64,000 nucleotides of DNA from Candidatus Uhrbacteria bacterium CG_4_9_14_3_um_filter_41_35 (GCA_002791275.1 PFWT01000009.1:211357-275356); one strand, 5' to 3'. Counted from the stretch's first letter, positions 12,485 through 62,817 are shown. Translations and numbers: made by a program. The notes: generated from the letters alone by a model not told the origin.

Positions 12485-12925
12485 GATGATCAATGTCCTC
12501 AATTGTTTTGAGTTGAATTAATACTTATTTATAATGTGATTCCGAGTGAGATTCTTCGGTGTGATCCACGTTCACCTCAGAATGACGGTTTGTTTAGATT
12601 CTTCGCCGTGATTCACGCTAAGCTATGAATGACGAGGCGATGAGATTCTTCACCGTGATTCACGTTAGGTTCAGAATGACGCTTGGTTTAATGGGCTTAG
12701 CCTTGAACTTCGTCCATCACATATTCCGTCATCCTGAAGCTGGCGACGATTCACGCTGAAGGATCTCCTTCGCCCTGTGCTGAATCGACATTCGCTTAGT
12801 GATTCAGTAATGAGATTCTTCGGTGTAGTTCACGTTCACCTCAGAATGACGGTTTTGTTTGATTTTGTCGGTGTGGTTCACGCCAAGGTCTGAATGATGG
12901 TTTAGTGGCTGTATAGCTTCTCCGA
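12485..12925. repeat. Array of a composite REP/MITE-like repeat family (locus 1)
   Basis: Contains at least four forward units (~GAGATTCTTCGCCGTGATTCACGTTAGGCTCAGAATGACGG) and one diverged inverted unit (CCGTCATCCTGAAGC..CACGCTGAAGGATCTCCTTCGCC). The same family occurs at 18.85-19.6 kb, 26.87-27.17 kb and 58.88-58.99 kb. Confidence 0.8.
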
Positions 12926-12974
12926 TGTTGTAAAAAATAAATCGCAATCTCTGTATGCAAAAAATACTAACGAA

Positions 12975-13008
12975 CTAAGACTGAGTCGCATCTGCAACTC
13001 AGTCTTAG
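12975..13008. repeat. Perfect 12-bp-stem hairpin (CTAAGACTGAGT ... ACTCAGTCTTAG) adjoining the repeat array
   Basis: Inverted repeat seen directly in the sequence. An extended 24-bp-stem version sits at 59144-59194, next to another array copy. The downstream flank TAATAAAAAACTCC is shared by both. Confidence 0.7.
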
Positions 13009-13024
13009 ATAATAAAAAACTCCA

Positions 13025-13055
13025 AAATCAAATCAAATCAAATCAAATCAAATCG
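13025..13055. repeat. (AAATC)n microsatellite, about 6 units
   Basis: Directly visible as aatcaaatcaaatcaaatcaaatcaaatc. Confidence 0.8.
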
Positions 13056-18734: not shown

Positions 18735-18849
18735 GACCAGTTTTCTGGTCTTATAGCTATCAGAGTATTTGAGCTAGCCCTGAAGTAATGCTGAATTTAT
18801 ACAATTCACCTTATTTTTTTGTATTTGTTTGTTACCGTCAATTGTTATC

Positions 18850-19615
18850 CGCCAGCCTGAAGCGAACGCTGACTTACGCTGAAGGATCTTTTTTGTTTTG
18901 TGTTTAATCGACATTTACTTAGTAATCCAACACTGAGATTCTTCGGTGTGATCCGTGTTCACCTCAGAATGACGAGGCGATGAGATTCTTCGCCGTGATT
19001 CACGTTAGGCTCAGAATGACGGTTTGGTTTATTTGGTGTAATTGTATTATTTTGACCCGCACCCATACCGTCATCCTGAAGCGAGCGACGACTCACGCTG
19101 AAGGATCTCCTTCGCCCTGTGCTGAACCGACATTTACTTAGTAATCCAACACTGAGATTCTTCGCCGTGATTCACGTTCACCTCAGAATGACGATTTGGT
19201 TAGATTTAATAGGCTTAGTTTTGAACTTCATCCTTCTTCTCATACCGTCATCCTGAAGCAAGCGTTGAGTTACGCTGAAGGATCTCCTTCGTTTAGCCGA
19301 ACCGGCATTTACTTGGTGATTCAGTAATGAGATTCTTCGCCGTGGTTCACGCTAGGCTCAGAATGACGGTTTTGTTTGCTGTATTTTAATGAATTGTCCC
19401 ACACTCATACCGTCATCCTGAAGCGAGCGCTAACTTACGCTGAAGGATCTCCTTCGCCCATTACTAAACCGAGACTTGTTTACACTGTAACTCAACACTA
19501 AGATTCTTCGGTGTGGTCCACGTTCACCTCAGAATGACGGTTTAATTAGATTCTTCGCCGTGATTCACGTTAGGCTCAGAATGACGATTTTATGCGTCTT
19601 CTAGCTACCCCACTG
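18850..19615. repeat. Array of the composite REP/MITE-like repeat family (locus 2, about 4 modules)
   Basis: The module is an inverted unit (ccgtcatcctgaagcgagcg..cacgctgaaggatctccttcgcc), a conserved linker (ctgtgctgaaccgacatttacttagtaatccaacact) and then 1-2 forward units (gagattcttcgccgtgattcacgtt.ggctcagaatgacgg). It is repeated several times. Confidence 0.8.
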
Positions 19616-19642
19616 TTGTAAAAAATAAGACTCCATAACATA

Positions 19643-25840: not shown

Positions 25841-26671
25841 TTACTTTTTGCTCTCTGATGCCTCTTTAACTAACTGATCCTTCATAGCTTCATCTAAATC
25901 CTCCACAGTTTCCTGAGAAGCCTTAGCTACAGCCACCTCTTCTTTTTTATCAGCCTTCTCCTTTACAGCAGTTTCAACAGCTTTCTTGTTAGCCTTTCCT
26001 TCAAGCAAAGCCTGTGACATTAGTTTAGCGATCATTCGAAGTGAAGCAATTGAGTCATCGTTAGCTGGAATTACGTAATCAACCTCAGTTGGGTTTACGT
26101 TTGTATCACAAACTCCAATAACTTTAATTCCACGTTTCTTAGCCTCAACAATAGCAGTTTTGTCATTTCGAACATCTAGAACAAAGATAGCCTCTGGTAG
26201 TTTCTTAAGTTCTGAAATTCCACCGATCTTACCTTCAAGTTCTTCAATCTTTCGGTCAAATTGCAACTGTTCAAGTTTAGTGTACTTCTTTAGCTCACCC
26301 TTTGTTCGCTGATCAATAAGACCAAGGTAGTTTTTGATAAGCTTTTGAATTTCTGGGAAGTTTGTAAAAGTTCCTCCAAGCCATCTTGTATTTACGTATG
26401 GAGCTCCAGCTTCTTCTGCAGACTTCTGAATTAAATCCTGAATCTGTGGTTTTGTTCCAATAAGAACAACGTTACCACCTCGAGACACAATTCCGCTTGC
26501 GTAAGCCAAAGCTTCCTCAAGCATCTTCTGGGTCTGTTCTACGTCAATAATGTGAACACCACCTCTTGAACCAAAAATAAATGGTTTCATCTTAGGGTGC
26601 CAACGGCTAGTTCGGTGTCCAAAGTGAACACCAGCTTTAAGCATTTCCTCAAGTGTAGGCATCTTAGGCAT
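25841..26671 (-). CDS. rpsB: 30S ribosomal protein S2
   Basis: MLKAGVHFGHRTSRWHPKM N-terminal signature. Forms the canonical rpsB-tsf gene pair. Confidence 0.9.
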   Translation of the reverse strand: MPKMPTLEEMLKAGVHFGHRTSRWHPKMKPFIFGSRGGVHIIDVEQTQKMLEEALAYASGIVSRGGNVVLIGTKPQIQDLIQKSAEEAGAPYVNTRWLGGTFTNFPEIQKLIKNYLGLIDQRTKGELKKYTKLEQLQFDRKIEELEGKIGGISELKKLPEAIFVLDVRNDKTAIVEAKKRGIKVIGVCDTNVNPTEVDYVIPANDDSIASLRMIAKLMSQALLEGKANKKAVETAVKEKADKKEEVAVAKASQETVEDLDEAMKDQLVKEASESKK

Positions 26672-26869
26672 ATTTTTTCCTTTTTTACGACGGTTTGACG
26701 AATTTGGGCCCTTTGTAAAAGGGAGGATCTCAAATCGATCGCCTCAAACCTGATTATTAAATTTTGAAGGTAAAAGTCTGAATTTTGCTAAAAATAGCCA
26801 CAAACAGTCCTTCCTGCGATGGCGATAATGTACATTATTTGCGTAGATTAGTCAAATAGTTGGTGAGTA

Positions 26870-27170
26870 AACACTGAGATTCTTCGCCGTGATTCACGTC
26901 AGGCTCAGAATGACGGTTTGATGAGATTTTTCGACGTGGTTCACGCTAGGTTCAGAATGACGAGGCGATGAGATTCTTCACCATAGTTCACGTCAGGCTC
27001 AGAATGACGAGGTGATGAGATTCTTCGCCGTAATTCACGTCAGGCTCAGAATGACGGTTTGGTGTGATTGTGTGGTTTATACATTCATCACCATCTCAAA
27101 TAAACCGTCCACCACTCATTTCGTCATCCTGAAGCGAGCGTCAAATTATGCTGAAGGATCTCCTTCGTTT
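26870..27170. repeat. Array of the REP/MITE-like repeat family (locus 3): four tandem forward units with a 47-bp period, plus one inverted unit
   Basis: Four roughly 47-bp units (gagattcttcgccgtgattcacgtcaggctcagaatgacgg + ~8-nt linker), then an inverted copy at ~27121-27166. Located upstream of rpsB. Confidence 0.8.
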
Positions 27171-27550
27171 TTGTGCTGAACCAACATTTATTAAATGAAT
27201 AATAAAAAGCAAAAGCGGTAGGTGGAAAATTCCAAACCTACCGCTCGATGTAGTCCGCCCTATGCCTACCGGCAATTCCCCGGCGAACCGTGGAAGCCGG
27301 CGAGCAAGTTTTCGCCGGAGTCGAAGCCGTGGAAGCCGGCAATTAACTCGCCGGCTTCCGTTGTCTCCTCACCGCCAAAAGTGGCGGTGAGGAGGAAAAA
27401 AAACAATGAAAATTGAAAACTCATTGTTACTCCCTTTCTTTTTGCCGACAAAAAAATCCTTCGCTTACCTCAGGATTTCACTTTTGCCGACTTACCATAT
27501 TACCACGTTTTTAACGTTTTGTCAAGCTCCGCTTAACAAAACGTACTTAA

Positions 27551-27590
27551 AATAAAGGACCCCTACACTACGAATAGTGCAGGGGTCACA
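27551..27590 (-). terminator. Rho-independent terminator downstream of the GC-rich lipoprotein gene
   Basis: Hairpin gacccctacact...agtgcaggggtc with a CTTTATTTT tract on the reverse strand. Confidence 0.5.
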
Positions 27591-27594
27591 GCGC

Positions 27595-28605
27595 TTAATA
27601 CGTCGCACCCACGTATGCGACGTTAAGCGCGTCGTAGTCCGTGCCGTTGGCGTACGCCCACGGCCGGACTTTGAAGCTCTGGCTCCCGCCGGTGACATAC
27701 ATGTCACCGACGAGGGTCATGTCGTTCTCCACCATGTGGCGCCAGACGCCATGGTGGAGAGCGAAGCCGTTGACGATGATCTGGTCATCGTCAGCGGCTA
27801 CCATAACCACGCAGGGATCCGTCATCCCTGCGTAGAGGCCCCACTCCAAAAAAGTGGGGTCCTCCCAGTTGTACCACTGGGAGTCGTCTTGGACGACCCC
27901 CAGCTTGTCGGTAAGAGCCAAGAACAAACGGAGCTGGGTCACTCCGTCTGCGATAAACTCTGCGGTGTCAACGCAGAGTTTGACGCGCATGTCGTCCGGC
28001 ACAGACGAGGTGCAACCCTCGTCCACCGCACCGTCGCAGTCGTTGTCGAGGCCGTCGTCGCAGACTTCTGCGAACGACGGGTTAACGGCTGCGCGCATGT
28101 CGTCGCAGTCATCGGGACGGGCCACGTAACCAGCTGGCTGGTTACACGCCACAATAGTTACGGCGTTTCCGCCGTAACTGTCGCCGTCGTTGTCTCGGTA
28201 CCAGATCTTGGTACCGACCGCGCCGACATCCACCGTGCCGTCGCAGTTGTTGTCGATGCTGTCGCAGACCTCGGTGGCGCCCGGGTAGATGTTCGGGTTG
28301 GCGTCGTTGCAGTCGACGCCGGCAATGAAGCCGTCGCCGTCCGCGTCCGTGCCGGCGTCCGTGCCGGCGTCCGTGCCAGCATCTGTGCCGGCGTCCGTGC
28401 CGGCGTCCGTGCCGGCGTCCGTGCCAGCATCTGTGCCGGCGTCCGTGCCGGCGTCCGTGCCAGTACCGCTGTCGGTACTGGCAAAATACCCGATCCCACC
28501 TGAAGTGGGATTGGGCGCCCCGCCACAGCCCGTAAGGGCCATGACAAGGGCGAATTCAAACATGCACTTTCGCATGAATCCTCCTTTTTGAGTGCACTTC
28601 TGCAC
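27595..28605 (-). CDS. GC-rich lipoprotein with (GTDA)n tandem repeat and Cys-rich 'putative metal-binding' DCDD/CDGxDNDCDG domains
   Basis: Lipobox LTGC, at least ten GTDA repeats, and two copies of a CNDANP...PGATEVCDSIDNNCDG / CDDM...FAEVCDDGLDNDCDG motif (the myxobacterial-type Cys-rich repeat). The antisense ORF 27577..28503 is compositional noise. Confidence 0.55.
   Translation of the reverse strand: MQKCTQKGGFMRKCMFEFALVMALTGCGGAPNPTSGGIGYFASTDSGTGTDAGTDAGTDAGTDAGTDAGTDAGTDAGTDAGTDAGTDADGDGFIAGVDCNDANPNIYPGATEVCDSIDNNCDGTVDVGAVGTKIWYRDNDGDSYGGNAVTIVACNQPAGYVARPDDCDDMRAAVNPSFAEVCDDGLDNDCDGAVDEGCTSSVPDDMRVKLCVDTAEFIADGVTQLRLFLALTDKLGVVQDDSQWYNWEDPTFLEWGLYAGMTDPCVVMVAADDDQIIVNGFALHHGVWRHMVENDMTLVGDMYVTGGSQSFKVRPWAYANGTDYDALNVAYVGATY
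28323..28470. repeat. 12-nt period tandem repeat (ggcgtccgtgcc)n, about 12 units, encoding (GTDA)n
   Basis: Directly visible in the sequence. Minor variants agcatctgtgcc occur. Confidence 0.85.
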
Positions 28606-28935
28606 TCGGTTTCAAGATTCTCGGAAATCAGCAGAATTTTGAATTCTGCATTATCCCTTTAAACCCACAATCTAGTACTTTGACTATAGGCTCCAAGCGA
28701 TTTTCGTTATTCTGGGACTTTAATTACTTCTATATTCCCTTTTTATAACGACCTACCATAATAGCATAAAATTGTCTTTCTGTCAAGGTCTTAGCTAAAT
28801 AAATACTCTAATCTTAGCAAAAAAAAGATACTCAGAATCTCTGAACATTTATCACAAACCGCGCAATTTTTACAAAAAAAAGACGCCTCTCATTTGAGAA
28901 GCGTCGAAGTGATGATCCATTGACTGCGCTTCAGC

Positions 28936-29583
28936 CTAATGGATCGGATCACCAAACGCGTAAGCGGGCAGCCCGCTTAGCGTAAAGTCAGTGAGCGCCC
29001 CGTCGGCGCTCCGGTCGTCGAACGGGAGGGAGGACTGTGGAACAATCCTCGCGTGCTCGATTTGAACACTTCCGTCTTCACGGAGGTGTTCAAGAGTGAC
29101 GTCTCCGAGGAGCGAGCGCTCCTCGGAGAGGCAGTGCCGGACGGTGTTACCCGTCCAGCAGAATCCGTTCACGATCACACCCTCGTTGGGTGTGATCGTG
29201 AACGGTGCGCTCGAGCACCGCTTCATCCCGCCCGTTCCGGGCGGAATGTTCTGAGCGACGAGGGCGTAACTGCCCTCGTCGTAGAACGTTGCGCCACCAT
29301 CCAGCTCCCGCTGGGTGATGGCGAAGAGGTAGACGTCCGTCGTCACCTCCTCCCCACCGACGCGCTGCGCGCCGGTGAAGCAGATGTAGGCCGCGCCGGC
29401 GTCAGTGCCGGCGCCGTTGCCGTTGCCGTCGGTGCCGGCGCCGGTGTCGTTGCCGGTGTCCCACGTGCCGGTGGTGCCGTCATTCGGCACCATCACGCAA
29501 CCGCCCATAAGGGCGAAAAGAATCATAAACTTCATTTTAACTCCTTTGGCCAGAAACTGGCCGTTGGTTTTCGGACTACCCAA
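28936..29583 (-). CDS. GC-rich lipoprotein with Gly/Thr/Asp/Asn-rich low-complexity linker (hypothetical)
   Basis: The MKFMILFALMGGC lipobox lies after the first in-frame Met, so the true start is probably around 29538. The T/G/D/N-rich stretch is followed by a globular region. GC3-rich codon usage. Confidence 0.45.
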   Translation of the reverse strand: MGSPKTNGQFLAKGVKMKFMILFALMGGCVMVPNDGTTGTWDTGNDTGAGTDGNGNGAGTDAGAAYICFTGAQRVGGEEVTTDVYLFAITQRELDGGATFYDEGSYALVAQNIPPGTGGMKRCSSAPFTITPNEGVIVNGFCWTGNTVRHCLSEERSLLGDVTLEHLREDGSVQIEHARIVPQSSLPFDDRSADGALTDFTLSGLPAYAFGDPIH

Positions 29584-29616
29584 TACTGCCTATGCAGTTC
29601 ATTGGGGAGTCCGCTT

Positions 29617-29666
29617 GCAGGACTCTTAAAATCTATAAATAATTTTATAAACTTTAAGAGTCCTGC
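29617..29666. promoter_or_regulatory. 16-bp perfect inverted repeat (ttgcaggactcttaaa / tttaagagtcctgcaa) around an AT-rich spacer, upstream of the 28936-29583 gene
   Basis: Seen directly in the sequence. No T-tract follows on either strand, which favours an operator over a terminator. Confidence 0.3.
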
Positions 29667-30000
29667 AAAACAACAGAAGAACTTATCATCAACTATCACC
29701 CTTGTCAATAGCTTAATCTTTTTCAACTCTTCCTTTGGTGACGTGCAACATACATCACTTTTATTTTACCCAGGCATCGTGTTTTTGTTTCAGTCGATAT
29801 AACAACATTTTCAGTGTATCCTGCGTAAATTTGATGTATGTTACCAGTCGTAACAGCACCAAAGAAAGAGTTAATTTTTAATAGAACATTTTCAAAGTTC
29901 TCATCGAACATTAAATTTCTTTAATATTCAGTGAAAAATTTAAAGGTGTGGAGCCGGGAAGAATGATTTCACTCATCTTCCCAGCTCCTAGGAGGAGCGC

Positions 30001-30900
30001 TTACTCGCGATCCGCGTGGCTGTTCCACAGCCACGCGAGGTTAGCACTCAGCTCGAGGCGCGTCACAGGCAGTGCCTGGTGACGCGTCCCCTGCAAGCCG
30101 GCGAAAACGCCAGGCTGCAGGGTGAGCTGAAGCTCGCTCCCGACCGGGAGCGAGTACCAGAGGCCACCGTGGCCTCCGATACTCGCTCCGGTGTAGCTCC
30201 AACCTTTGCCGAGACCGGAGTGGTTACCAACCACTCCGGCGTAAAAGCCGAGGTCATTCGACTCCTGTGACCAGTAGGTCACGGAGTCGAATGACCCTCC
30301 GACGTGGTCGGGGCCGAGCTCAAGGCTCGGGATGAAAAGGTGGCCCACCTTGGCCCCCTCCCATCCCCAGATCACTCCCGTCCGGAGTGATCCTTGGACC
30401 GCTCCGGTGGCGCCGGCGATGGGCTGGCCGAAGCCGGCGCCGAGGCCGGCGCTCCAGCCGGCAACCATCCGTCTGTCATCCACGCGCCCGTTAAGCGCGT
30501 AGATGGCGGCGCGGTTACTTGCCACCCCGTCGCCGAGATTGGCGACGTCGGCCTCGAGCTGACCGATTCGCACCAAAAGTGCGGTGCGCTCAACCATCAA
30601 TTCCTCAAACTGTTCCACGATGTCGTGGAACTCCTGACCAGCATACCGGTCAAGTTTTCCGAGGTACACTCGGGTTTCGTTGAGCTTCCGCTCAACGGCC
30701 CCGAGTTGCGCCCGAACGGCACCGATGTCGGTGCTGTTCGTGACCGAGGTTTGCACCTCCGTCACTTCCTGCGTCGCCGGAGCGACGCAGGGGTTCACAC
30801 AGTCCTCCGGGCCGCCAGCGAAAGCGCTGGTGGCCGGAGCGATTACGATCATTACGAAGGCCATAACGGCCTTCGCGGACTTCCTCATTGTGGCCATCAT
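30001..30900 (-). CDS. GC-rich secreted protein: signal peptide, coiled-coil, Gly/aromatic-rich C-terminal domain (hypothetical)
   Basis: Signal peptide MIVIAPATSAFA, a heptad-like region (LEADVANL...), and a C-terminus with alternating G/W/Y/S β-strand-like segments. The antisense ORFs are noise. Confidence 0.45.
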   Translation of the reverse strand: MMATMRKSAKAVMAFVMIVIAPATSAFAGGPEDCVNPCVAPATQEVTEVQTSVTNSTDIGAVRAQLGAVERKLNETRVYLGKLDRYAGQEFHDIVEQFEELMVERTALLVRIGQLEADVANLGDGVASNRAAIYALNGRVDDRRMVAGWSAGLGAGFGQPIAGATGAVQGSLRTGVIWGWEGAKVGHLFIPSLELGPDHVGGSFDSVTYWSQESNDLGFYAGVVGNHSGLGKGWSYTGASIGGHGGLWYSLPVGSELQLTLQPGVFAGLQGTRHQALPVTRLELSANLAWLWNSHADRE

Positions 30901-31237
30901 GACCTCCTTCTGTTGTTTTTTGGCTACTTTCTGATCTCATCATTATTACCGACTTTAAGAAAAATCGGCAAATGCTAAGACCAATAAGTAACCAAAAAAC
31001 TTTGTGCAATGTCGGCTATTCTGAAGCACGACGACGCAACTTAACACAAGCTAAAGTATTTGTCAATAGTCTCTTAGCAAAATAAAAAACCCACTCGGAA
31101 GGCTCGAGATCTAGTCATAATAAGGAGGAGGTATTACGATTTGACACTCGAGCCATCGAAGCAGGCTTTTCAGTGCTGAGACCTTAGCAAAGCCTCAAAA
31201 ATCTGTCAACGGATTTACATTTTTCAGCAGATTTTTC

Positions 31238-31975
31238 TTAATTATTTGGATAAAACTCGCCATTTTTTACAATCTTTTCAAAAAAACGCTTTAAAACCAT
31301 AACTGCAAAAGGAGTTTCACCAACATTGTCCTGCATCACTAAAAGAGCGTCAGCCGACAATTTATAGATGTTTGCATAACGCTTTAAACGCCAGTGAACT
31401 GCTTCTTTATTTAGTTCTGGATGAAAGGTTAGCGCGTAAACCGGTTCGCCTGGAAAAGTGAAAGCTTGAACGCTTGAACGCACGCTCGACGCTAAATTAA
31501 CAGCTCCAACCGGTAAATTCATAATGTGGTCTTTGTGGCCGAGTTGAGCTTCAAAGCTCTCTGGAATTTCGCTAAATACTGGGCAATCCTTAGCCTCAAC
31601 CTTTTTCGTAATCAAAAAAGTGCCAGTTTCCTGATTTGCTTCGTCTAGCTCAACCACCCCACCAAAAGTTTGCGCTAAAATCTGCGCCCCAAAACAAATT
31701 CCGAGTGTTGGAATTTGTTTACCTCTTGCCAAACGAATAATTTCCCCCACCAATCCAACTTTTTCAGGAATATCGCCGTTTGAAAGCAAATAATCACCGG
31801 AACCACCAATAACCAAAGCGTCAACACCATTCAAATCTGTCTCGCTTGGTATTTTTTCTAAAACATTAAGTGAAACAACATCCTCAGCCTTCAAACCAGA
31901 CTGATGCACGAAACATTCAAGTTCGTGCTGTTCGGTTTCTGAATCAGGTCGCAACTGAATAAGCAAAACTTTCAT
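31238..31975 (-). CDS. Class I glutamine amidotransferase-like protein (GATase1)
   Basis: GICFGAQ nucleophile-elbow motif and an H/E dyad region (LTFHPE). Confidence 0.65.
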   Translation of the reverse strand: MKVLLIQLRPDSETEQHELECFVHQSGLKAEDVVSLNVLEKIPSETDLNGVDALVIGGSGDYLLSNGDIPEKVGLVGEIIRLARGKQIPTLGICFGAQILAQTFGGVVELDEANQETGTFLITKKVEAKDCPVFSEIPESFEAQLGHKDHIMNLPVGAVNLASSVRSSVQAFTFPGEPVYALTFHPELNKEAVHWRLKRYANIYKLSADALLVMQDNVGETPFAVMVLKRFFEKIVKNGEFYPNN

Positions 31976-37731: not shown

Positions 37732-38652
37732 TTGATGAAAGAAGAAAACGAATCTGGCCAGGAAGGGCCGGAAATCAAGATGCCGGAAGCCTCGGCGCGT
37801 ATCCCGCGCCGAGGTCCCGACAACAAGGCCGACGACGTCGGCGCCATTGACCCTAGCCGAAACGCTAGGGCTAACCACACCATCGCCTCGGCGATGGCGG
37901 TCGCGGTCTTCGTGATCATGTGTATGCTCGCGATTGCGGGCTTGCTCATGTTCGCTGAGCCCCAGAGCGTGGCCGTGGCTCAGGCAACGGCCACCGAGCC
38001 AGCGACCTCGCCGGTCGCTGACGCGTCAGTGGTCACTTCGGTGACCACTGACGCCTTCGCGGTCTCGGAGATCGAGCCCACGGAGGCGAGCGCTCCGCTC
38101 GTCGCTCCGCGGCCTCGGATCGACGTCCTGGCCTCCGGCCCGAACGAGGCCGGGGTCGAGTACCTGAGCGGCGAGAGCTGGGATCAGCTCTCCCGCCAGT
38201 TCACCATCAGCCGGGAGGACTGCGCCAAGCTCTTTGGCGCAGACTTCGTCTGCAAGCCGGTTGTGCTCAGCATGGCCGCCGTTACCGCGGCCTACGCGGT
38301 AACGGGTGAGCAGCCGGTGCTCGGCGTGAACGACTACGTCGTTTTCGCCGAGCCTGACGAGAACGGAACGCACCAAGCAGTGCTCCGTTCTTGTGCGCTC
38401 GCGGCCATCACTGGCCTCGCTGTGGCCGAGGGGCAACAGTGCCCCTCGGCCACGATCACCTGGCGCCATTATGGCCAGCGAGAGGCCATGAACTTGGCCG
38501 AACGCAACAAGGCGGGCGCTAAGTCCGGGCAGACTTCGACAACGCCGAAGTCTGCCCCGGCGCTCAAGGCCTCACCGAACTTCGGTGAGGCCTTGAGCGT
38601 CCACGAGCGCCGGCTCCAGGCGCTCGAGGCCAAGACCTTACAGGGAAGCTAG
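37732..38652 (+). CDS. GC-rich membrane-anchored Ala/Pro/Thr-rich protein (hypothetical)
   Basis: Basic N-terminus, then a TM helix (MAVAVFVIMCMLAIAGLLMF), then an extracytoplasmic domain. GC3-rich codon usage unlike the flanking rpl genes. The antisense ORFs are noise. Confidence 0.45.
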   Translation: MMKEENESGQEGPEIKMPEASARIPRRGPDNKADDVGAIDPSRNARANHTIASAMAVAVFVIMCMLAIAGLLMFAEPQSVAVAQATATEPATSPVADASVVTSVTTDAFAVSEIEPTEASAPLVAPRPRIDVLASGPNEAGVEYLSGESWDQLSRQFTISREDCAKLFGADFVCKPVVLSMAAVTAAYAVTGEQPVLGVNDYVVFAEPDENGTHQAVLRSCALAAITGLAVAEGQQCPSATITWRHYGQREAMNLAERNKAGAKSGQTSTTPKSAPALKASPNFGEALSVHERRLQALEAKTLQGS

Positions 38653-38793: not shown

Positions 38794-40089
38794 ATGTCAA
38801 CTATTCCAAAGTTGGTTGCCGGTTTGCGCGATGCCGCTCAAATCATTTTCGAAAACCTCGACACTGATCGCTTCAACATGATTTTTAACGATCTTGAGAG
38901 TTCGGCAGACACGTTTTCGCTAAGTGACCTAAAAACTAAGCTCCAAATCTTGCGAGCACAGATTAAAACCTTTCCTCTAGACAGAGCAACAAAATTAGAG
39001 CTTTCAAATCAGTTGAAATTACTAGCTGGCAAGCTGGCAAGTAGCCACAGTCTCCTTGAGGAACCGCTCAGAATTCAAAATCTGAACAGTTCTCTAGATT
39101 ATGTCGATCCACCATCGCTATCGGCGATTCAAATCAGAAAGAGACCCGATGAATTTGAAAAGCCCACCGAACACGCACCCATTCGTGTTCCCCGTACTTT
39201 AGCTACGGTAGAAATTAATGAAGACTTAGTGGAAGCTGAAGAGCGATGGCATAATACAGACGAAGTAGAAGTCGCCGAATTCTTCGGTGATCTTCCCCCG
39301 CCCTCGGACGAAGAGCGTCTGCTTCCGCCGGGCTTTACCGAGGATCCGAGTAACTCTTCGCAACAAAAAGCGCTCGAAGCACAAACCCTAGGAGCTTATT
39401 TTGCTGAAGGAGACGCTATGAACAGCTCTCCGAAGAAAAGGAATGAAGATCGAGCACGCGACACTACCCGACTACTTTTGAACTTTTCGCTCCTTGGTTT
39501 AGTGGCAATTATCGCCATCTGTACCGTTCGTATGAGCACTTTTCAAGACACTCTTAGCTACATCCGGGCTCAAAAGCTGGTACATCTATCATCAGAACCA
39601 CGGATCTCACTCACTGAGAGTCTGTCTGAAGTGCCAGTTCTGGTGGCTAACGTAGCGGAGCAGTCGCCTATCGAAACTGAAATCGATGAAACTGTGACAG
39701 CGGTCATTGACTTCATTACAGCTATCGAAGAAGAACCGGCAACGCGTGGAGAGGAGCTAACAAAAACCCTCACCACCGTGGTCGTCTATGTACCTCAACC
39801 AGTTGAACAAGTGCCCCTACTTCAGACCGCTGTCTCTGAACCCGGAGCTCCAACTAAGGTTCGTATCAAGCCTTCGAGCGACGATCAGCCAGTTCGGTGT
39901 GATGGTGAATTTGCCTACAGTAACCTCCTTTGGCAAAACGGTCATTGGTGGGGACTGCGCGACGTCGAGTGCAACAATGGCCTCTACACCATCACGGTTG
40001 GCGCGTACAAGGGCGAAACTATCCGATCGTCCTGCCTAAACGCCGAAACAAACGGCACCCCCTGGTGCCGTTTGATCGAGCGCTTTTAA
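38794..40089 (+). CDS. Hypothetical membrane protein (single TM, Cys-containing C-terminal domain)
   Basis: An internal TM helix (LLLNFSLLGLVAIIAICTV). The C-terminus carries 4 Cys (CDGEF...CNNG...C...C). Intermediate GC content. Confidence 0.4.
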   Translation: MSTIPKLVAGLRDAAQIIFENLDTDRFNMIFNDLESSADTFSLSDLKTKLQILRAQIKTFPLDRATKLELSNQLKLLAGKLASSHSLLEEPLRIQNLNSSLDYVDPPSLSAIQIRKRPDEFEKPTEHAPIRVPRTLATVEINEDLVEAEERWHNTDEVEVAEFFGDLPPPSDEERLLPPGFTEDPSNSSQQKALEAQTLGAYFAEGDAMNSSPKKRNEDRARDTTRLLLNFSLLGLVAIIAICTVRMSTFQDTLSYIRAQKLVHLSSEPRISLTESLSEVPVLVANVAEQSPIETEIDETVTAVIDFITAIEEEPATRGEELTKTLTTVVVYVPQPVEQVPLLQTAVSEPGAPTKVRIKPSSDDQPVRCDGEFAYSNLLWQNGHWWGLRDVECNNGLYTITVGAYKGETIRSSCLNAETNGTPWCRLIERF

Positions 40090-40215: not shown

Positions 40216-40292
40216 GGACCGGTAGTTCAATTGGTTAGAGCACCGCCCTGTCACGGCGGAAGTTGCGAGTTCGAGTCTCGTCCGGTCCGCCA
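40216..40292 (+). tRNA. tRNA-Asp (anticodon GTC), CCA encoded
   Basis: Cloverleaf with acceptor GGACCGG/CCGGTCC, D-arm TAGTTCAATTGGTTAGAGC, anticodon loop cCTGTCAc and T-arm GCGAGTTCGAGTCTCGT, ending GCCA. Confidence 0.9.
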
Positions 40293-40295
40293 GAA

Positions 40296-40327
40296 AAATG
40301 CCTCAGCGAAAGCTGGGGCTTTTTTTG
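40296..40327 (+). terminator. Rho-independent terminator after tRNA-Asp
   Basis: Hairpin gcctcagc-gaaa-gctggggc with a U·G pair, followed by T7. Confidence 0.5.
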
Positions 40328-40377
40328 TTGAGTTAAGAATGAAATTAATTCAAGATTCAAGACCTGACCCCCTAGTT

Positions 40378-40548
40378 TATTTTCTCTGAAATTAAAAATA
40401 TCCAAGATCGCAATAAAATGATTTATTTTGCACGAATAATAGCAGGATATTCAATCACCGACATCTCTCAACATCTTCAACTACACCGCTCAACCGTAAG
40501 TCGAATATTTAATGGAAGTCACAGGTAACGACTTGACCCCTCTACTTT
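40378..40548 (+). repeat. 171-bp direct repeat R, copy 1 (carries the 3' part of a small HTH gene; truncated copy)
   Basis: Near-identical to 43558-43728, with about 5 mismatches. It holds a 36-codon remnant (40418-40528) of the 58-aa HTH ORF found intact in copy 2. Confidence 0.85.
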
Positions 40549-40771: not shown

Positions 40772-42562
40772 ATGACAAAGATCAGCAAGATTTCATCAAT
40801 CATTCTGGGAGTTGGACTTGTTCTTGGTATCGGTGCGCCAAGCAGTTCGTTTGCGGCAACAGACCCTGGATTAGGTGCGGCCTCGACCTTTTCAATCATC
40901 GCCCAAACAGCAATTACCAGAACTGGAACCATTGCTAATGATGTGGGCTTAAATAGCACAGGTGCTGGTATCACAGCGCTCACGGACCTAATGGTTGGTG
41001 GGACTATCTACTCTTCGGATGGAGTGGCACCGAGTACCGCTACGCTTGATCCGAGTGTTCAAGCTAACCTTATAACGGCTAACGGTAATATTTCAGGACA
41101 AGGTTCGACTGCAAGCATTGGTCCAGCGCTTGATGGTTTAAGTCTTGTTCCTGGCGTTTATGACATCGGAGCTGGTCGTCTAAACGGTGGCGTGCTTACT
41201 CTAGATGGAGCTGGAGTCTATATTTTAAGAGCCTCGAGCGACCTTATTTCCTCTGGTTCAATTAATTTTATAAACGGAGCAACAGCTTGTGATGTTTTCT
41301 GGCAAGTTAATTCCCTGGCAACTATCAATGGTAGTTCGTTTGCTGGAACGATTATTGCAGGAACAGGTGTTCATTTTGGGCCTAACGTCACTTTAGCGGG
41401 TAATGCGCTAGCGCTCGGTGGTGACGTAACTTTAAAAAATACAACAATTTCTGCACCAGTTTGTACCGCTGTAGTGCCGTCAACATCAGATATTTATAAC
41501 ACAATTACAGTTATTAAAAATGTTATCAACGATAATGGCGGAACATCTACTTTTAATGATTTCCTTCTTTACGTTGGTGGAACACACGTAACTAGTGGTC
41601 AAAGTGTTCCTTTTCAAGCGGGTACTTATGCTGTGACTGAAACAGGTGTATCTGGTTATTCAGCAACATATAGCGGTGATTGTAACGCAAGCGGTATGAT
41701 TCTTCACGGTGGAGCTAGTACTCGTAACCACATTTGTTTTATTACAAATGATGATATTGGAGCACCCGTAGCGATCCCACCGGTACCACCACTTATTGAT
41801 ATCATTAAGGTTCCAAGTCCAATCAATCTCCCAAATGGGCCCGGTCTTGTAACTTATTCTTTCGCACTCACTAATATTGGAACCGTGCCGGTTACAGATA
41901 TTACTGTAATTGACGACTCATGCAATCCGTTGTTCATTTCTGGCGATCTGAATAATAATAGTGCCCTGGATCTTACCGAAACCTGGAGATATTCTTGTTC
42001 AAAGACCCTGACTGAAACCTACACCAACACCGTTGTAGCAACAGGTTGGGCAAATGGAATTAACGTTAGCGATGTTGCAGACGCAATTGTTACGGTTGGC
42101 ATTCCAGTTGTGCCACCAATAATTCACGTAACAAAAGTTCCAAGTCCACTTATACTCTCAGCTGGTGGTGGCACAGTTACGTACACTAATAAAGTAACTA
42201 ACCCAGGTATAGTTGCTTTAAGTAATATTTATCTTGCAGACGATAAGTGCGAACCTGTTGAATATATCTCCGGTGATATTAATAACGATTCAAAACTTGA
42301 TGTAACAGAGACCTGGACTTACACTTGCCAAACAAATCTAACTACAACTACTATGAACACAATCACCGCGAGTGGTGATGCTAATGGATTGACTGCCAGA
42401 GACTTTGCTAGGGCAACTGTTGTAGTAAACGCTGCTGTTCCGAAGTTACCAAACACTGGAATAACTTCTGCAAAATCAGGTAGCTATACGGGTCTTGTAA
42501 CCGTAAGTCTTTTGACACTCGCTACCCTATTCTACTTGGGTCGAAAGCAACAGCTAATTTAG
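40772..42562 (+). CDS. LPXTG-anchored surface protein with N-terminal ice-binding-like (DUF3494) β-helix domain and two DUF11-type repeats
   Basis: Signal peptide. The motif GAASTFSIIAQTAITRTGTIANDVGLNSTGAGITAL matches the DUF3494 start (GaAanFaVLAgstvTnTG.s.i.GdlGvsPG). Two roughly 80-aa repeats (KVPSP.NL..G.G.VTY...TN.G.V.......DD.C.P...SGD.N....LD.TETW.Y.C) are present. The C-terminus has LPNTG, a hydrophobic segment and GRKQQ. Confidence 0.7.
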   Translation: MTKISKISSIILGVGLVLGIGAPSSSFAATDPGLGAASTFSIIAQTAITRTGTIANDVGLNSTGAGITALTDLMVGGTIYSSDGVAPSTATLDPSVQANLITANGNISGQGSTASIGPALDGLSLVPGVYDIGAGRLNGGVLTLDGAGVYILRASSDLISSGSINFINGATACDVFWQVNSLATINGSSFAGTIIAGTGVHFGPNVTLAGNALALGGDVTLKNTTISAPVCTAVVPSTSDIYNTITVIKNVINDNGGTSTFNDFLLYVGGTHVTSGQSVPFQAGTYAVTETGVSGYSATYSGDCNASGMILHGGASTRNHICFITNDDIGAPVAIPPVPPLIDIIKVPSPINLPNGPGLVTYSFALTNIGTVPVTDITVIDDSCNPLFISGDLNNNSALDLTETWRYSCSKTLTETYTNTVVATGWANGINVSDVADAIVTVGIPVVPPIIHVTKVPSPLILSAGGGTVTYTNKVTNPGIVALSNIYLADDKCEPVEYISGDINNDSKLDVTETWTYTCQTNLTTTTMNTITASGDANGLTARDFARATVVVNAAVPKLPNTGITSAKSGSYTGLVTVSLLTLATLFYLGRKQQLI

Positions 42563-42636: not shown

Positions 42637-43266
42637 ATGCGATCAATAATTACACCAAAAAAAGCTACATATATATTTTTCCCCTCAGGTATAATTCTTT
42701 CTGTTGCCCTTTTACTAAATATTATTCCCCAGAATTCTGTGAATAATAATATAAATCCGACCATAGAAAATAACGTAGTAATTTCTGATGTGGTGCCGGT
42801 AGTAAAACAGATGATTAGTATTGGCTCACCCGTAAGACTTGAAATCCCAGCAATTAACATTAATACTAATATTATTTCCGTAGGATTAACTCCGACTGGC
42901 GCAGTTGCTGTTCCCGATAATCCATTCGAAGTAGCCTGGTACAATCTCGGATCTAAGCCGGGAGAGACCGGTAGTGCAGTTATTGATGGTCATTACGGCT
43001 GGATTAATAACGAACCAGCTGTATTTGATGATTTGAATAAATTAAAAACAGGTGACGAAATTTTTGTCGAAGATAAAAACGGTAGAATTATTAATTTTAA
43101 AGTCCGCGAAATAGCTATTTTCAAAAAAGATGATGATGCCGTAAACGTATTTTTATCAAACGACGGCAAGGCGCACCTCAATCTAATCACCTGCACCGGT
43201 GATTGGAATAAATCAGAAAAAACTTTTTCCGAGCGACTTGTAATATTCAGTGATGTTGCTGAATAA
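42637..43266 (+). CDS. Sortase (class E/F-like transpeptidase)
   Basis: N-terminal TM anchor, the LEIPAININ motif, catalytic His in GHYGW, active-site LNLITCTG (TLxTC) and a conserved Arg region. Located immediately downstream of the LPXTG substrate gene. Confidence 0.8.
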   Translation: MRSIITPKKATYIFFPSGIILSVALLLNIIPQNSVNNNINPTIENNVVISDVVPVVKQMISIGSPVRLEIPAININTNIISVGLTPTGAVAVPDNPFEVAWYNLGSKPGETGSAVIDGHYGWINNEPAVFDDLNKLKTGDEIFVEDKNGRIINFKVREIAIFKKDDDAVNVFLSNDGKAHLNLITCTGDWNKSEKTFSERLVIFSDVAE

Positions 43267-43531: not shown

Positions 43532-43708
43532 ATGATCAGCAGACCGAGTTTGGAAGATATTTTCTCTGAAATTAAAAATATCCAAGATCGCAATAAAATG
43601 ATTTATTTTGCACGAATAATAGCAGGGTATTCAATCACCGATATCTCTCAACATCTTCAACTACACCGCTCAACCGTAAGTCGAATATTTAATAGAAGTC
43701 ACAGGTAA
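43532..43708 (+). CDS. Small HTH-domain protein (58 aa; transposase/recombinase-type or Xis-like helix-turn-helix)
   Basis: MISRPSLEDIFSEIKNIQDRNKMIYFARIIAGYSITDISQHLQLHRSTVSRIFNRSHR. The helix-turn-helix lies in IAGYSITDISQHLQLHRSTVSRI. The gene falls below the ORF-track length cutoff. Confidence 0.4.
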   Translation: MISRPSLEDIFSEIKNIQDRNKMIYFARIIAGYSITDISQHLQLHRSTVSRIFNRSHR

Positions 43709-43728
43709 CGACTTGACCCCTTTACTTT
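43558..43728 (+). repeat. 171-bp direct repeat R, copy 2
   Basis: Near-identical to 40378-40548 and directly abuts the partial tRNA-Asp copy. Confidence 0.85.
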
Positions 43729-43794
43729 ACAATTGGTTAGAGCATTGTTTTGTTATGGTGGAAGTTGCGAGTTCGAGTCTCGTCCGATCCGCCA
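43729..43794 (+). pseudogene. Partial tRNA-Asp copy (D-loop plus T-arm/acceptor 3' half; lacks 5' acceptor and anticodon arm), att-like remnant
   Basis: caattggttagagca...gaagttgcgagttcgagtctcgtccgatccgcca matches the 3' 34 nt of the tRNA-Asp at 40216-40292 with one mismatch. Confidence 0.65.
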
Positions 43795-43846
43795 GGACTA
43801 TTTCTTATAGTGCAACCCGAGTGGCTTGCAAAAGATAGGAACGAGT

Positions 43847-44026: not shown

Positions 44027-44704
44027 TCAGTAGACCTGGAGCTTCGAAGCTGAAGGCACAAAAATACCTGATAGCAACATTTGTCCATGACCTAGAACAG
44101 CGTAGGTTGAACCGGACCAGTGCTCCCCAAGAATACTCGAGTAGGAGTTGATCCAGTTGTCGTAGGCCGTCGTCTTACCGTCGATCGTGGTCTTGTTCGC
44201 GGTCGGAAAATGGAATCGATGATCACAACCACCCCACTCACAGGCCCCGGTGGACTGCCGGTCCATCCACGTGCCAGACGTACAGCCATAACCGCAGCTT
44301 CCGCCGTAAAGTGAGGTCTGGTAAGCTGGGCTCCAAACAGTGCAAGTGCTCTGACCGGGCAGGCATGACCGGTACAGGTCACCCTCTAACGCATCATAAA
44401 CCACCTGTACGTCAAGATCGAACGGGGCGATACCTTGCTTAATGGCCTCCTCAACCACGACGTTCGCGATATAGGTGTTGTCGACGTCCGCCCCCTGGAG
44501 GCGCATAAGCTCATCCATGAAGGAGCGGAGCTCGTTCGGGTCAAGGTTTCGAACCTCGTCGTTGATATCGACAGCCTCCTCGTCGGTGACCTCGAGCTCG
44601 AGATAGCGCCAGGAGAGATCCAACACATAAGTGTTGTTGCTGGTCTCGATGTTGGATTCGATCTCATCATTAATAGTTGTCTGCACACTGCAAGCGGTCA
44701 CCAA
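44027..44704 (-). CDS. Hypothetical secreted/lipoprotein with GC-rich Cys/Gly/Trp-rich C-terminal half
   Basis: Extending the frame upstream gives KNYLFLSLALLVTAC, a lipobox, but no ATG. The start is therefore uncertain (TTG or GTG). The C-terminus has 8 Cys and many Trp and Gly. The 44100-44400 portion is conspicuously GC-rich. Confidence 0.4.
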   Translation of the reverse strand: MVTACSVQTTINDEIESNIETSNNTYVLDLSWRYLELEVTDEEAVDINDEVRNLDPNELRSFMDELMRLQGADVDNTYIANVVVEEAIKQGIAPFDLDVQVVYDALEGDLYRSCLPGQSTCTVWSPAYQTSLYGGSCGYGCTSGTWMDRQSTGACEWGGCDHRFHFPTANKTTIDGKTTAYDNWINSYSSILGEHWSGSTYAVLGHGQMLLSGIFVPSASKLQVY

Positions 44705-44817
44705 AAGAGCCAGGGAGAGAAAAAGATAGTTTTTATTAAAGAGAGTTTCCTTATTTATTCAAGCACAGTTTATCTATGCGCGGGTAAACATAACAATAAC
44801 TGCTCATCGAGTCAAGC

Positions 44818-58851: not shown

Positions 58852-58879
58852 CGAACCGTAAATCATTTTTGGTTTAGTA

Positions 58880-58990
58880 ATTCAACAATGAGATTCTTCG
58901 CCATGAATCATGCCAGGCTCAGAATGACGGTTTAATTAGATTCTTCAATGTAATTCACGCCAGGCTCGGAATGACGGTTTGGTTCGTCGT
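58880..58990. repeat. REP/MITE-like repeat family (locus 4, two forward units)
   Basis: gagattcttcgccatgaatcatgccaggctcagaatgacgg and a second diverged unit. These are followed by hairpins at 59028-59055 and 59144-59194. Confidence 0.75.
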
Positions 58991-59143
58991 CTAGCTTGTC
59001 CGGTTTGTCGATAAAAAACACAGCGAGCGGGAGACCGCATGGGGTCTCCCGTACACCTTGACCTTGATATAAGAATGGCCGCACACGGCCACACGTTTGT
59101 TAATATAACTCTGCAATCCCTGTGAGCATAAAATGCTCACAAA

Positions 59144-62723: not shown

Positions 62724-62817
62724 CTTCCCTCCCTTGAACTTAGTTTAACAGTAAGTTGAATTATTAATTTAGTCAATGTTAATTACATAAAAAAACACAC
62801 CCTTGCTAAGGAGTGTG

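Follow-up and report, generated by a model that had tools for sequence, protein, structure and literature searches.

The GC-rich block at 27-31 kb of the window, by which we mean the whole analysed stretch of 64,000 nucleotides, is an old lineage-specific peculiarity, neither a recent import nor an assembly error. With a probability of roughly 0.5, we consider it a domesticated four-gene surface cassette, restricted to a subclade of Candidatus Uhrbacteria, which diverges fast and keeps its GC3 above the level expected from passive amelioration. What looks like a foreign high-GC block in an AT-rich genome is here shared by diverged relatives, and the coding regions alone are GC-rich. The DNA belongs to a Candidatus Uhrbacteria from Crystal Geyser, a member of the CPR, in agreement with the early guess of a CPR or epibiotic bacterium.

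Composition and Gene Content

The GC content of the whole window is 0.416. Between 27 and 31 kb it reaches 0.51-0.61 in 1-kb bins, and the windowed check confirmed the anomaly with peaks of 0.69-0.72 in 200-nt bins. The initial annotation had described an island of three GC3-biased genes on the reverse strand, and this island is real. Over the coordinates first given, 27595-28605, 28936-29583 and 30001-30900, GC is 0.62, 0.62 and 0.64 and GC3 is 0.77, 0.77 and 0.76, respectively, while all housekeeping neighbours lie at GC3 0.26-0.41 (background about 0.33). Codon preference in the GC-rich genes is inverted relative to the genome for every amino acid. The likely starts of the three genes according to gene calls are 28575 (p1), 29535 (p2) and 30897 (p3), and a fourth gene at 27266-27424 (p0) had been missed. 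The cassette consists of four genes in the order p3, p2, p1, p0, immediately upstream of rpsB. The block is not unique in the window, as the same anomaly is found at 37732-38652 and 44027-44704 (p4 and p5). The features are as follows.

26875-27190, reverse strand: REP-like array, a native dispersed 47-nt element between the cassette and rpsB
27266-27424, reverse strand: p0, fourth cassette gene, predicted secreted peptide of 52 aa in which AGFHG occurs twice
27425-27594, reverse strand: p1-p0 spacer with p1 terminator, p0 promoter and p0 leader
27595-28575, reverse strand: p1, predicted 326-aa lipoprotein, GC3 0.77
28343-28461, reverse strand: (GTDA)n coding tandem repeat, 12-nt unit in 9.9 copies
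28576-28935, reverse strand: AT-rich p2-p1 spacer with p2 terminator, p1 promoter and p1 leader
28936-29535, reverse strand: p2, predicted 199-aa lipoprotein, GC3 0.77
29536-30000, reverse strand: AT-rich p3-p2 spacer with terminator, conserved block, p2 promoter-like site and leader
30001-30897, reverse strand: p3, 298-aa secreted ORFan, GC3 0.76
30898-31066, reverse strand: p3 promoter-like site and leader, read from sequence
37732-38652, forward strand: p4, ORFan downstream of rplT, GC3 0.81
44027-44770, reverse strand: p5, ORFan with 7 Cys (mechanically called gene 44027-44704, GC3 0.66)

High GC is confined to the coding sequences. In the spacers separating the island genes GC falls to 0.30-0.35; spacers, promoters, leaders and terminators are of native type, as had been claimed for the spacers, and every GC-rich gene has native AT-rich DNA on both flanks. 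For each cassette gene, a separate sigma-70-type promoter, a long and structured AT-rich leader, and an intrinsic terminator were recognised. The predicted products are extracytoplasmic and contain Cys: two lipid-anchored paralogues, a secreted protein with a coiled coil, and a small peptide. Evolution of the genes is rapid, yet under purifying selection. Signal peptides and lipoboxes were judged by reading the sequence, with [LVI][ASTVI][GAS]C as the lipobox pattern, which was matched by p1 (MALTG/C) and p5 (LLVTA/C) and more loosely by p2 (ALMGG/C). The surface or secreted nature first proposed for the three products is visible by the same reading (p1 ...ALTG/C, p2 ...LMGG/C, p3 ...SAFA/GG).

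Individual Genes and Spacers

The p3 protein consists of a type-I signal peptide (…TSAFA/GG), a CxxxC pair, a coiled coil of about 100 aa and a Gly/aromatic-rich C-terminal half; AF2 modelled helices at aa 30-137 only. Searches of 5.8e9 clusters and 1.84e9 representatives gave no homologue beyond its own cluster and the copy in the related contig L007 (dN/dS 0.33). Its promoter-like site, TTGACA-17-TAAGTT at 31038-31066, is followed by a leader of 133 nt with a long hairpin inside (fold -47.7 kcal/mol, z = -6.5). In the p3-p2 spacer, the terminator hairpin of p3 lies at 29950-29988 and the promoter-like site of p2 at 29680-29708; the spacer further contains a conserved stretch of some 200 nt and the p2 leader, 138 nt long with three hairpins (fold z = -10.9), the second of which keeps its pairing in L007 via two double changes. 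The spacer is about 83-89% identical to that of L007, above both adjoining coding sequences. A 62-aa ORF called in it is probably non-coding, because the indels relative to L007 are not multiples of three.

In p2, a lipobox and a G/T/D/N-rich linker precede a C-terminal domain (about 130 aa, four Cys) that p1 also has. This is the fastest-evolving cassette gene, with 46% amino acid identity to the L007 copy and dN/dS of 0.68. Among billions of proteins searched, the C-terminal domain was found in the window and L007 lineages only. The two genes are paralogues, p1 being p2-like with two MopE modules in addition. Between them lie the p2 terminator (28882-28905), the p1 promoter TTGACA-17-TATTAT (28758-28786) and a structured p1 leader of 176 nt (fold z = -4.1); this promoter and leader are 75-78% identical to those of L007.

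The p1 protein begins with a lipobox (ALTG/C) and an acidic (GTDA)n linker, followed by two MopE-type Cys-rich modules (nt ~28006-28347) and the p2-like C-terminal domain. The two Cys-rich modules reported at the outset were recovered in an HMM search as PF11617 Cu-binding_MopE, in two stretches, at E 1e-24 and 86.9 bits against a gathering cutoff of 27, and PDB entry 2vov (MopE*) was matched at E 7e-7. The structure model is unreliable (pLDDT 28). The L007 homologue, P0002, is full-length with 58-61% identity (dN/dS 0.24), while database proteins match the MopE module at about 40-60% identity across about one third of p1. The nearest MopE matches are Myxococcota-like, the module is commonest in Myxococcota, and it is the only part of the cassette that links it to GC-rich bacteria. 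The (GTDA)n repeat was likewise described correctly; its 12-nt units form a higher-order unit of 48 nt in 2.5 copies. Copy number differs between samples by ±48 nt, with one extra 48-nt unit in L004 and L092, and the length of the p1 linker varies between populations.

The p0 gene was called in several assemblies. On L007 it corresponds to a 51-aa ORF in which the AGFHG motif is also present twice. GC3 along p0 is 0.50/0.75/0.85, and the mature part is GC3-rich. The spacer before it, 73-78% identical to that of L007, carries the p1 terminator (27558-27587), the p0 promoter TTGACA-17-TAATAT (27497-27525) and a leader of 66 nt, in which a hairpin resembling a terminator is followed by a U-run (fold z = -2.4). 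The flanking REP-like array noticed from the start is genuine, with a 47-nt unit in 3.9 copies at 26875-27056. The core motif of this unit has ten occurrences in the window, where 0 would be expected, and the element starts downstream of p0 on L007 too.

Outside the cassette, p4 is predicted to span the membrane with a single helix, and to have an N-terminal tail and an extracellular, Cys-containing part. The gene has its own TTGACA-type promoter and prefers Leu CTC strongly over CTG, as do the cassette genes; no match was found in Pfam, NCBIfam, PHROG or PDB. The TTG start of p5 was called mechanically, and upstream of it, in the same frame, there is a lipoprotein-type signal (…YLFLSLALLVTA/C).

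Counterparts in Related Genomes

The window and L007, a 3.5-kb contig without marker genes, provide the sole true orthologous comparison. L007 carries the four cassette genes in identical order; the proteins are 46-73% identical, GC3 is 0.90 in p3, 0.80 in p2 and 0.82 in p1, and spacer GC is 0.30-0.41. GC content is slightly but consistently lower in the window copies. Spacers and leaders are 75-89% identical and the three coding sequences about 78%, 50% and 62%; conservation is higher in the AT-rich spacers than in the genes. This conservation may reflect function, which would make the spacers a poor neutral yardstick. Divergence of the cassette genes amounts to dS 0.55-1.31, with dN/dS of 0.24-0.68.

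Two other Uhrbacteria species, L008 and L011, have a GC3-rich lipoprotein gene (0.77 and 0.91, respectively) at the corresponding position upstream of rpsB. The GC3 of rpsB itself is 0.36-0.37, and RpsB is 66-70% identical among these species and the window. In L088, another Patescibacterium, a MopE lipoprotein gene with GC3 0.92 and a similar promoter lies among neighbours at 0.38-0.48. Orthology of these three lipoproteins to p1 was judged from position, architecture, MopE module and promoter likeness, the last being partly a generic consensus. For the MopE module, hhalign gave 96.5% with the L011 lipoprotein, and nothing past the signal peptide was found for that of L008. Contigs of the relatives end at these lipoprotein genes.

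Synonymous Sites and the Decay of GC3

We compared the observed GC3 with a model of neutral loss starting from an ancestral GC3 of 0.95-1.0. For p1 the model predicts 0.55-0.65, while 0.77 (window) and 0.82 (L007) were observed; for p2 it predicts 0.66-0.75 against 0.77 and 0.80. The p3 gene, predicted at 0.74-0.83 and observed at 0.76 and 0.90, fits slow passive decay. G<->C changes account for 33% of the synonymous differences, and their proportion is higher in coding sequences (52:105) than in spacers (31:140; p = 0.002). Differences between the window and L007 were asymmetric, 63 being winW/L7S and 42 winS/L7W; these substitutions are unpolarised because the available strains are 99.99% identical. 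Over all five GC-rich genes, from three loci, Leu CTC:CTG is 48:11, compared with 116:105 in GC-rich bacteria that carry MopE (p = 5e-5). This shared bias may reflect a common cause, and we count it in favour of the domesticated-cassette reading. As a control, MopE genes elsewhere follow the local composition, with GC3 of 0.36 in one AT-rich genome.

We infer that the high GC3 is not a mere leftover and that a force on coding sequences in this class of genes, unproven as yet, would hold it up. Selection on synonymous sites or mRNA composition would best fit the sharp boundaries of the coding sequences; alternatively, GC-biased conversion or repair tied to locally frequent mutation or recombination might be responsible. 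Only tentatively do we extend this to a subclade of AT-rich Patescibacteria with two codon regimes per genome, in which housekeeping genes stay at GC3 ~0.33 and fast-evolving, Cys-containing extracytoplasmic ORFans are actively kept at 0.8-0.9 across speciation by a force on coding sequences only (synonymous or mRNA selection, or GC-biased mutation or conversion). If true, composition would be under a gene-class-specific control of a new kind, possibly tied to an epibiotic lifestyle.

The same data could be read as an ancient transfer from a very GC-rich donor before the split of the window and L007, followed by purely passive and incomplete amelioration without any upkeep. The fit of p3 agrees with this, as do the slightly lower GC3 of the window copies, the 63 to 42 asymmetry, and the lipobox, acidic linker and MopE architecture, which is native to GC-rich bacteria. 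We nevertheless find it rather unlikely, since p1 and p2 remain at GC3 0.77-0.82 after dS of 0.85-1.31, values that the model does not reach even when started at 1.0, and since G<->C differences are in excess. Under this reading, counterparts at GC3 0.77-0.92 in species with RpsB only 66-70% identical would require that no decay took place over very long times, and the spacers within the block are AT-rich and conserved.

Origin of the Cassette

Under the domesticated-cassette reading, a MopE-type lipoprotein would have been acquired long ago from a GC-rich bacterium, then duplicated, with domains recombined within the lineage, and the cassette would have been inherited vertically ever since. 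For the MopE lipoprotein architecture alone, a foreign origin in the remote past is plausible. The proteins may form a surface layer or a set of adhesins, stabilised by disulfides and bound Ca or other metal, with a probable role in contact with the environment or with a host or partner cell, and would diversify quickly.

It is improbable that a hotspot upstream of rpsB captured surface genes from GC-rich donors, possibly hosts, independently in each lineage. Past the MopE modules or the signal peptide, homology of the L008 and L011 lipoproteins to p1 is indeed slight or undetectable, the relatives' contigs break at these genes, and the closest MopE matches are Myxococcota-like. However, the window and L007 have all four genes in one order, and their AT-rich spacers, promoters and leaders are homologous; promoters are alike across lineages, and p2 and p3 lack donor homologues. 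The idiosyncratic codon signature common to the five GC-rich genes is absent from candidate donor-type contigs, and no integrase, transposase, tRNA, att-like or flanking direct repeats were found at 26.6-31.3 kb.

A recent transfer of the three-gene block from a high-GC donor, which the initial annotation had suggested, is very improbable. Its appeal lies in GC3 values of 0.76-0.77 against a background of ~0.33 and in the prevalence of the MopE module in Myxococcota. It fails by the refuting condition that the annotation had set for itself: the cassette is also present in L007, where its genes are just as GC-rich and its AT-rich, native-type spacers homologous, so it is older than the split (dS 0.55-1.3), and two further Uhrbacteria species have GC3-rich lipoprotein genes at that position upstream of rpsB. 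Moreover, the p1/p2 paralogy arose in the lineage; the protein searches for a donor gave no homologue of p2 or p3 in any GC-rich organism, and the same holds for the C-terminal domain of p1 and p2. Assembly chimera or mis-binning, suggested by the composition jump and nothing else, is negligible and had rightly been doubted: the island is present at 99.9-100% identity in five independent assemblies (different samples and pipelines; JGI, ENA), both junctions are reproduced in assemblies from at least five samples, and each GC-rich gene is bordered on both sides by native AT-rich DNA.

Comparison with Known Systems

Islets of horizontal transfer are recognised by atypical GC and codon usage within the Lawrence-Ochman amelioration framework. 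The cassette resembles them as a discrete accessory cluster of surface genes, more than 0.4 off the genome in GC3 and with a foreign-type MopE domain. Unlike in such islets, only the ORFs are atypical, and the internal DNA, from spacers and promoters to leaders and terminators, is native and conserved; a diverged relative has the cassette too, mobility genes and an identifiable donor are lacking, and GC3 lies above neutral amelioration in two of the three genes modelled. As a candidate for a recently acquired genomic island it was rejected, as atypical codon usage was found, but not atypical intergenic DNA, patchy presence, mobility signatures or donor homologues.

In Borrelia, vls-type antigenic-variation loci contain surface-lipoprotein genes markedly GC-richer than the AT-rich genome. 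Surface lipoprotein genes with raised local GC in an AT-rich, host-dependent bacterium, rapid divergence and population polymorphism are common ground. Self-blastn and tblastn within the 64-kb window gave no extra copies that could serve as silent donor cassettes. Unlike vls, each cassette gene is a separate transcription unit, and GC skew over 27-31 kb is -0.03 to -0.07, unexceptional for the window. A diversity-generating retroelement target was rejected as well: no repeat pair involved the GC-rich genes, and no RT was seen in the scanned subset of window ORFs.

Among MopE/PF11617 proteins, which include MopE* of Methylococcus capsulatus (PDB 2vov) and are abundant in Myxococcota, p1 has two modules above the gathering score, and its lipobox, acidic linker and MopE architecture recurs in the GC-rich bacteria L089-L091. 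The C-terminal domain of p1 and all of p2 and p3 are, in contrast, unrelated to MopE and lineage-specific. The composition of p1 is discordant with its own genome, whereas every other MopE gene examined was concordant. Judged from its DxDGDG and Cys pattern, Ca binding would fit p1 as well as copper.

Composition and layout of the cassette

The GC-rich island near rpsB is a real, conserved set of four surface-protein genes, p0-p3, which are transcribed separately, and its GC-richness is limited to coding sequence. The GC content of the window was 41.6%. Bins on the 1-kb scale at 27-31 kb reached 0.51-0.61, with 200-nt peaks of 0.69-0.72 in the island and drops to 0.30-0.35 between the genes. 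The three ORFs p1-p3 had GC of 0.62-0.64 and GC3 of 0.76-0.77, and GC3 was 0.26-0.41 in every housekeeping neighbour (tsf, rpsB, eno, pgk, gap, GATase, and others). Windowed GC and per-gene GC3 thus bore out the GC3-biased island in AT-rich surroundings described in the initial annotation. The three genes listed there were indeed GC3-rich, but a fourth small gene at 27266-27424 had been overlooked. The genes, in 5' to 3' order, and their unusually structured leaders were as follows.

30897-30001, minus strand: p3, first gene
30898-31030, minus strand: leader of p3
29535-28936, minus strand: p2, second gene
29536-29673, minus strand: leader of p2
28575-27595, minus strand: p1, third gene
28576-28751, minus strand: leader of p1
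27424-27266, minus strand: p0, fourth gene, followed by the REP-like array and then rpsB
27425-27490, minus strand: leader of p0

Each of p0-p3 had a promoter-like TTGACA-N17-TAnnnT and a hairpin-plus-T terminator. The leaders are long and folded much more stably than shuffled controls, with z of -6.5 (p3), -10.9 (p2), -4.1 (p1), and -2.4 (p0). The p2 leader contained a 26-bp perfect hairpin and a second hairpin, whose pairing is kept in the diverged relative L007 through two double (compensatory) changes; in the p0 leader there was a terminator-like hairpin with a U-run. No Rfam family matched any of the four leaders, the conserved spacers gave nothing real in Rfam, only generic hairpin (miRNA-model) matches, and a scan with the leader-hairpin DNA motif returned one unrelated contig.

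Both repeats reported earlier were recovered: the (GTDA)n tract as a 12-nt tandem unit in 9.9 copies at 28343-28461, and the REP-like array on the flank as a 47-nt unit in 3.9 copies at 26875-27056. The 47-nt element is native and dispersed: its core matched 10 sites in the window, on one strand throughout, against 0 expected. This REP/MITE-like element (core CGTCATTCTGAGCCTGACGTGAA) formed tandem arrays of constant orientation in at least four intergenic regions.

12536-13041, one orientation: intergenic array of the 47-nt element
18849-19628, one orientation: intergenic array of the 47-nt element
26870-27190, one orientation: intergenic array of the 47-nt element
58874-59002, one orientation: intergenic array of the 47-nt element

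Encoded proteins and their shared signature

The p1 product is a true PF11617-module lipoprotein, in which a lipobox and an acidic (GTDA)n linker are combined with two MopE modules and a C-terminal domain. The two Cys-rich modules claimed for one product matched Pfam PF11617 (E 1e-24), and the MopE part matched 2vov (MopE*) in PDB. The p2 protein is a paralogue of p1, sharing the lipobox, linker, and C-terminal domain, without MopE modules. In p3, a signal peptide precedes about 100 aa predicted to be helix or coiled coil, and the C-terminal half is rich in Gly and aromatic residues. The p0 gene encodes a 52-aa secreted peptide with the AGFHG motif twice. Outside the MopE part of p1 there was no match in Pfam, NCBIfam, PHROGs, or PDB, PDB sequence searches being negative for p3, p4, and the p1/p2 domain. 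AF2 models were of low confidence and unusable for fold searches (pLDDT 42 for p3 and 28 for p1). The p0-p3 proteins would be surface proteins or adhesins that are rich in disulfides and bind metal or Ca, with an acidic stalk of variable length. The GC-rich genes mark fast-evolving surface proteins which are the likeliest to mediate partner contact in this uncultivated epibiont lineage.

The same compositional anomaly was found outside the island, at 37732-38652 (GC3 0.81) and 44027-44704 (GC3 0.66).

37732-38652, plus strand: p4, ORFan, GC3 0.81, membrane-anchored
44027-44770, minus strand: p5, ORFan, GC3 0.66, lipoprotein-type signal upstream of the called start

Each of the six GC-rich genes, p0-p5, specifies an extracytoplasmic protein that contains Cys; Cys content was 2.3% in p1-p5 versus 0.4% in native genes. 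Both p4 and p5 showed the preference of the island for Leu CTC over CTG, the CTC:CTG ratio across p1-p5 (three loci) being 48:11, compared with about 1:1 in native genes and 116:105 in GC-rich MopE-bearing contigs (Fisher p = 5e-5). GC3 also climbed to 0.65-0.75 in the final approximately 60 codons of 38794-40089, and was 0.49 and 0.44 in genes for a DAGK-like kinase and a metallophosphoesterase (61758-63585, minus strand), versus a genome norm of about 0.33.

Conservation in relatives

The sole full-length homologue of p1, P0002, was found on the 3.5-kb contig L007, which comes from an unrelated run and has the gene order of the window: p3-like (partial), p2-like, p1-like, and p0-like, with the same 47-nt REP-like element starting downstream of p0. 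GC3 of its coding sequences was 0.90 (p3-like), 0.80 (p2-like), and 0.82 (p1-like), and GC of its spacers was 0.30-0.41. Protein identity between the window and L007 was 73% for p3, 46% for p2, and 61% for p1, with dS of 0.55, 0.85, and 1.31 and dN/dS of 0.33, 0.68, and 0.24, respectively. By these dS and dN/dS values p1-p3 are real, selected genes whose divergence is old. The best conserved parts were the AT-rich spacers, with about 83-89% identity to L007 in the p3-p2 spacer; promoter and leader blocks were 73-78% identical, and coding sequences about 78% (p3), 50% (p2), and 62% (p1). The spacers had been called native-looking, and this holds: their GC is 0.30-0.35 and they are homologous and conserved on L007. 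Native, conserved intergenic DNA is not what a foreign block inserted into native DNA would contain; the mosaic has been passed on as one unit. The cassette is older than the split between the window and L007 and has no detectable donor.

Of 80 rpsB loci compared from Patescibacteria, only the two closest, from other Uhrbacteria species (L008 and L011), had a discrete GC-rich segment that codes for protein, immediately upstream of rpsB and on the same strand. The L008 gene (GC3 0.77) specifies a lipoprotein of 283 aa containing (DT)n repeats, and the L011 gene (GC3 0.91) one of 329 aa containing MopE modules; GC3 of the adjoining rpsB was 0.36-0.37. RpsB identity among the three species was only 66-70%. 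L011 has the MopE region in common with p1 (hhalign 96.5%), and L008 had no detectable similarity to p1 beyond the signal peptide. In L088, another Patescibacteria MAG, GC3 was 0.92 in a MopE lipoprotein gene and 0.38-0.48 in its neighbours. Similarity among the promoter regions of these genes in the window, L007, L008, and L088 extended past the two hexamers (z = 4.8-6.2), in part as strong-promoter consensus.

Possible maintenance of GC3

Retention of an ancestral GC3 was modelled as neutral two-state decay at the observed dS, starting from 0.95-1.0 and approaching an equilibrium of 0.33.

GC3 under neutral decay and as observed
p1: model 0.55-0.65; observed 0.77 (window) and 0.82 (L007)
p2: model 0.66-0.75; observed 0.77 (window) and 0.80 (L007)
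p3: model 0.74-0.83; observed 0.76 (window) and 0.90 (L007)

Of the 160 synonymous third-position differences between the window and L007, 52 were G<->C, and the ratio of G<->C to S/W changes was 52:105 in coding sequences versus 31:140 in spacers (p = 0.002). This excess is suggestive of turnover under a GC-favouring force. These tests are suggestive rather than decisive: they cover one orthologous pair, and its substitutions are unpolarised because the window shares 99.99% identity with the other strains (L092 and L093). Orthology of the L008, L011, and L088 genes, if real, would exclude passive retention outright. Variation among strains, though little, is concentrated in the island: of eight sites that were variable or ambiguous, five lay there, in 17.7% of the length compared (p = 0.006), as did the VNTR.

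A gene-class-specific force would hold synonymous sites at G/C. Sharp CDS boundaries and the better conserved AT-rich spacers speak for putative selection at the level of the coding sequence or mRNA rather than for tract-based biased gene conversion, itself likewise putative. If GC3 is actively maintained, this would point to such a force in a reduced, AT-rich CPR genome, where, to our knowledge, it has been neither described nor expected.

Origin of the cassette

Atypical GC is a standard first-pass sign of recent gene transfer, and the island was initially taken as recently acquired from a high-GC donor. This is not supported: the genes are old in the lineage and donorless, with native conserved spacers, and of five features that define a recent genomic island the cassette lacks four. 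Inference of transfer from GC fails here, as the "foreign" genes are wired into native regulatory DNA. The p1/p2 C-terminal domain was confined to the window and L007 lineages in a profile search, matches of p1 elsewhere span only the MopE third of the protein, and the donor search for p3 and the p1/p2 domain gave nothing outside these two lineages. No p3 homologue beyond its own cluster was found among 5.8e9 clusters (word-indexed search) or 1.84e9 representatives (exhaustive HMMER scan), nor any related locus by alignment in genome and metagenome collections. The MopE lipoprotein architecture would be an ancient acquisition from a GC-rich bacterium, followed by p1/p2 duplication inside the lineage.

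The closest analogy is the Borrelia vls locus, where surface lipoprotein genes are GC-rich in an AT-rich genome. Unlike at vls, strong GC skew is absent here and no silent cassettes were found within the window. The window also held no DGR template/variable pairs. In the literature we found no description of this compositional dimorphism, which in a CPR lineage accompanies fast-evolving surface ORFans and is apparently undescribed.

Forcing by amino-acid composition or the MopE module was rejected because GC3 is synonymous and the MopE gene of the AT-rich contig L096 is AT3-rich (GC3 0.36); in uniformly GC-rich contigs (L089-L091, L095, L097, L098) the architecture of lipobox, acidic linker, and MopE is compositionally native. 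Translational selection for abundant-protein codons was rejected, as rpsB, tsf, and eno are AT3-rich. An assembly chimera, already judged unlikely in the initial annotation, was rejected, since window 26601-31300 occurs with the same junctions and 99.9-100% identity in five independent assemblies (JGI 3300009004, 3300003830, 3300007986; ENA ERZ27293358, ERZ27293400).

Annotation of the locus and other loci in the window

Structurally, the assemblies differed only in the (GTDA)n tract, which in some samples was longer by one 48-nt unit. Contigs from many samples encoded exactly the EF-Ts protein found in the window. The GC-rich genes cause errors in public data, where antisense ORFs are called in their stead and contigs are broken. 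Because the cassette genes are GC-rich, long antisense ORFs exist over p1/p2 (L001 and L003, corresponding to 27577-28503, plus strand, 308 aa, and 28966-29682, plus strand, 238 aa); public gene calls sometimes pick these instead, and annotation of the locus is inconsistent between records. Contigs from this species and from relatives ended repeatedly at or inside the GC-rich lipoprotein gene, as in L008 (1-350), L011 (1-234), L088 (1-366), L006 (start), and L092 (end), which suggests that acidic coding repeats, strain variation, or coverage dependent on GC broke the assemblies.

A 171-nt direct repeat (97.7% identical) with a truncated second copy of tRNA-Asp, at 40216-40548 and 43558-43795, flanks a segment of about 3 kb encoding an ice-binding-like/DUF7507 surface protein (40772-42562) and a sortase (42637-43266). 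The segment resembles an islet that was integrated or duplicated next to a tRNA gene. At 46352-51943 (minus strand), a 1863-aa alpha-2-macroglobulin-like protein has, between its bait-region and A2M domains, a HINT/intein-like insert (PT-HINT, Vint, Intein_splicing; residues ~1106-1235).
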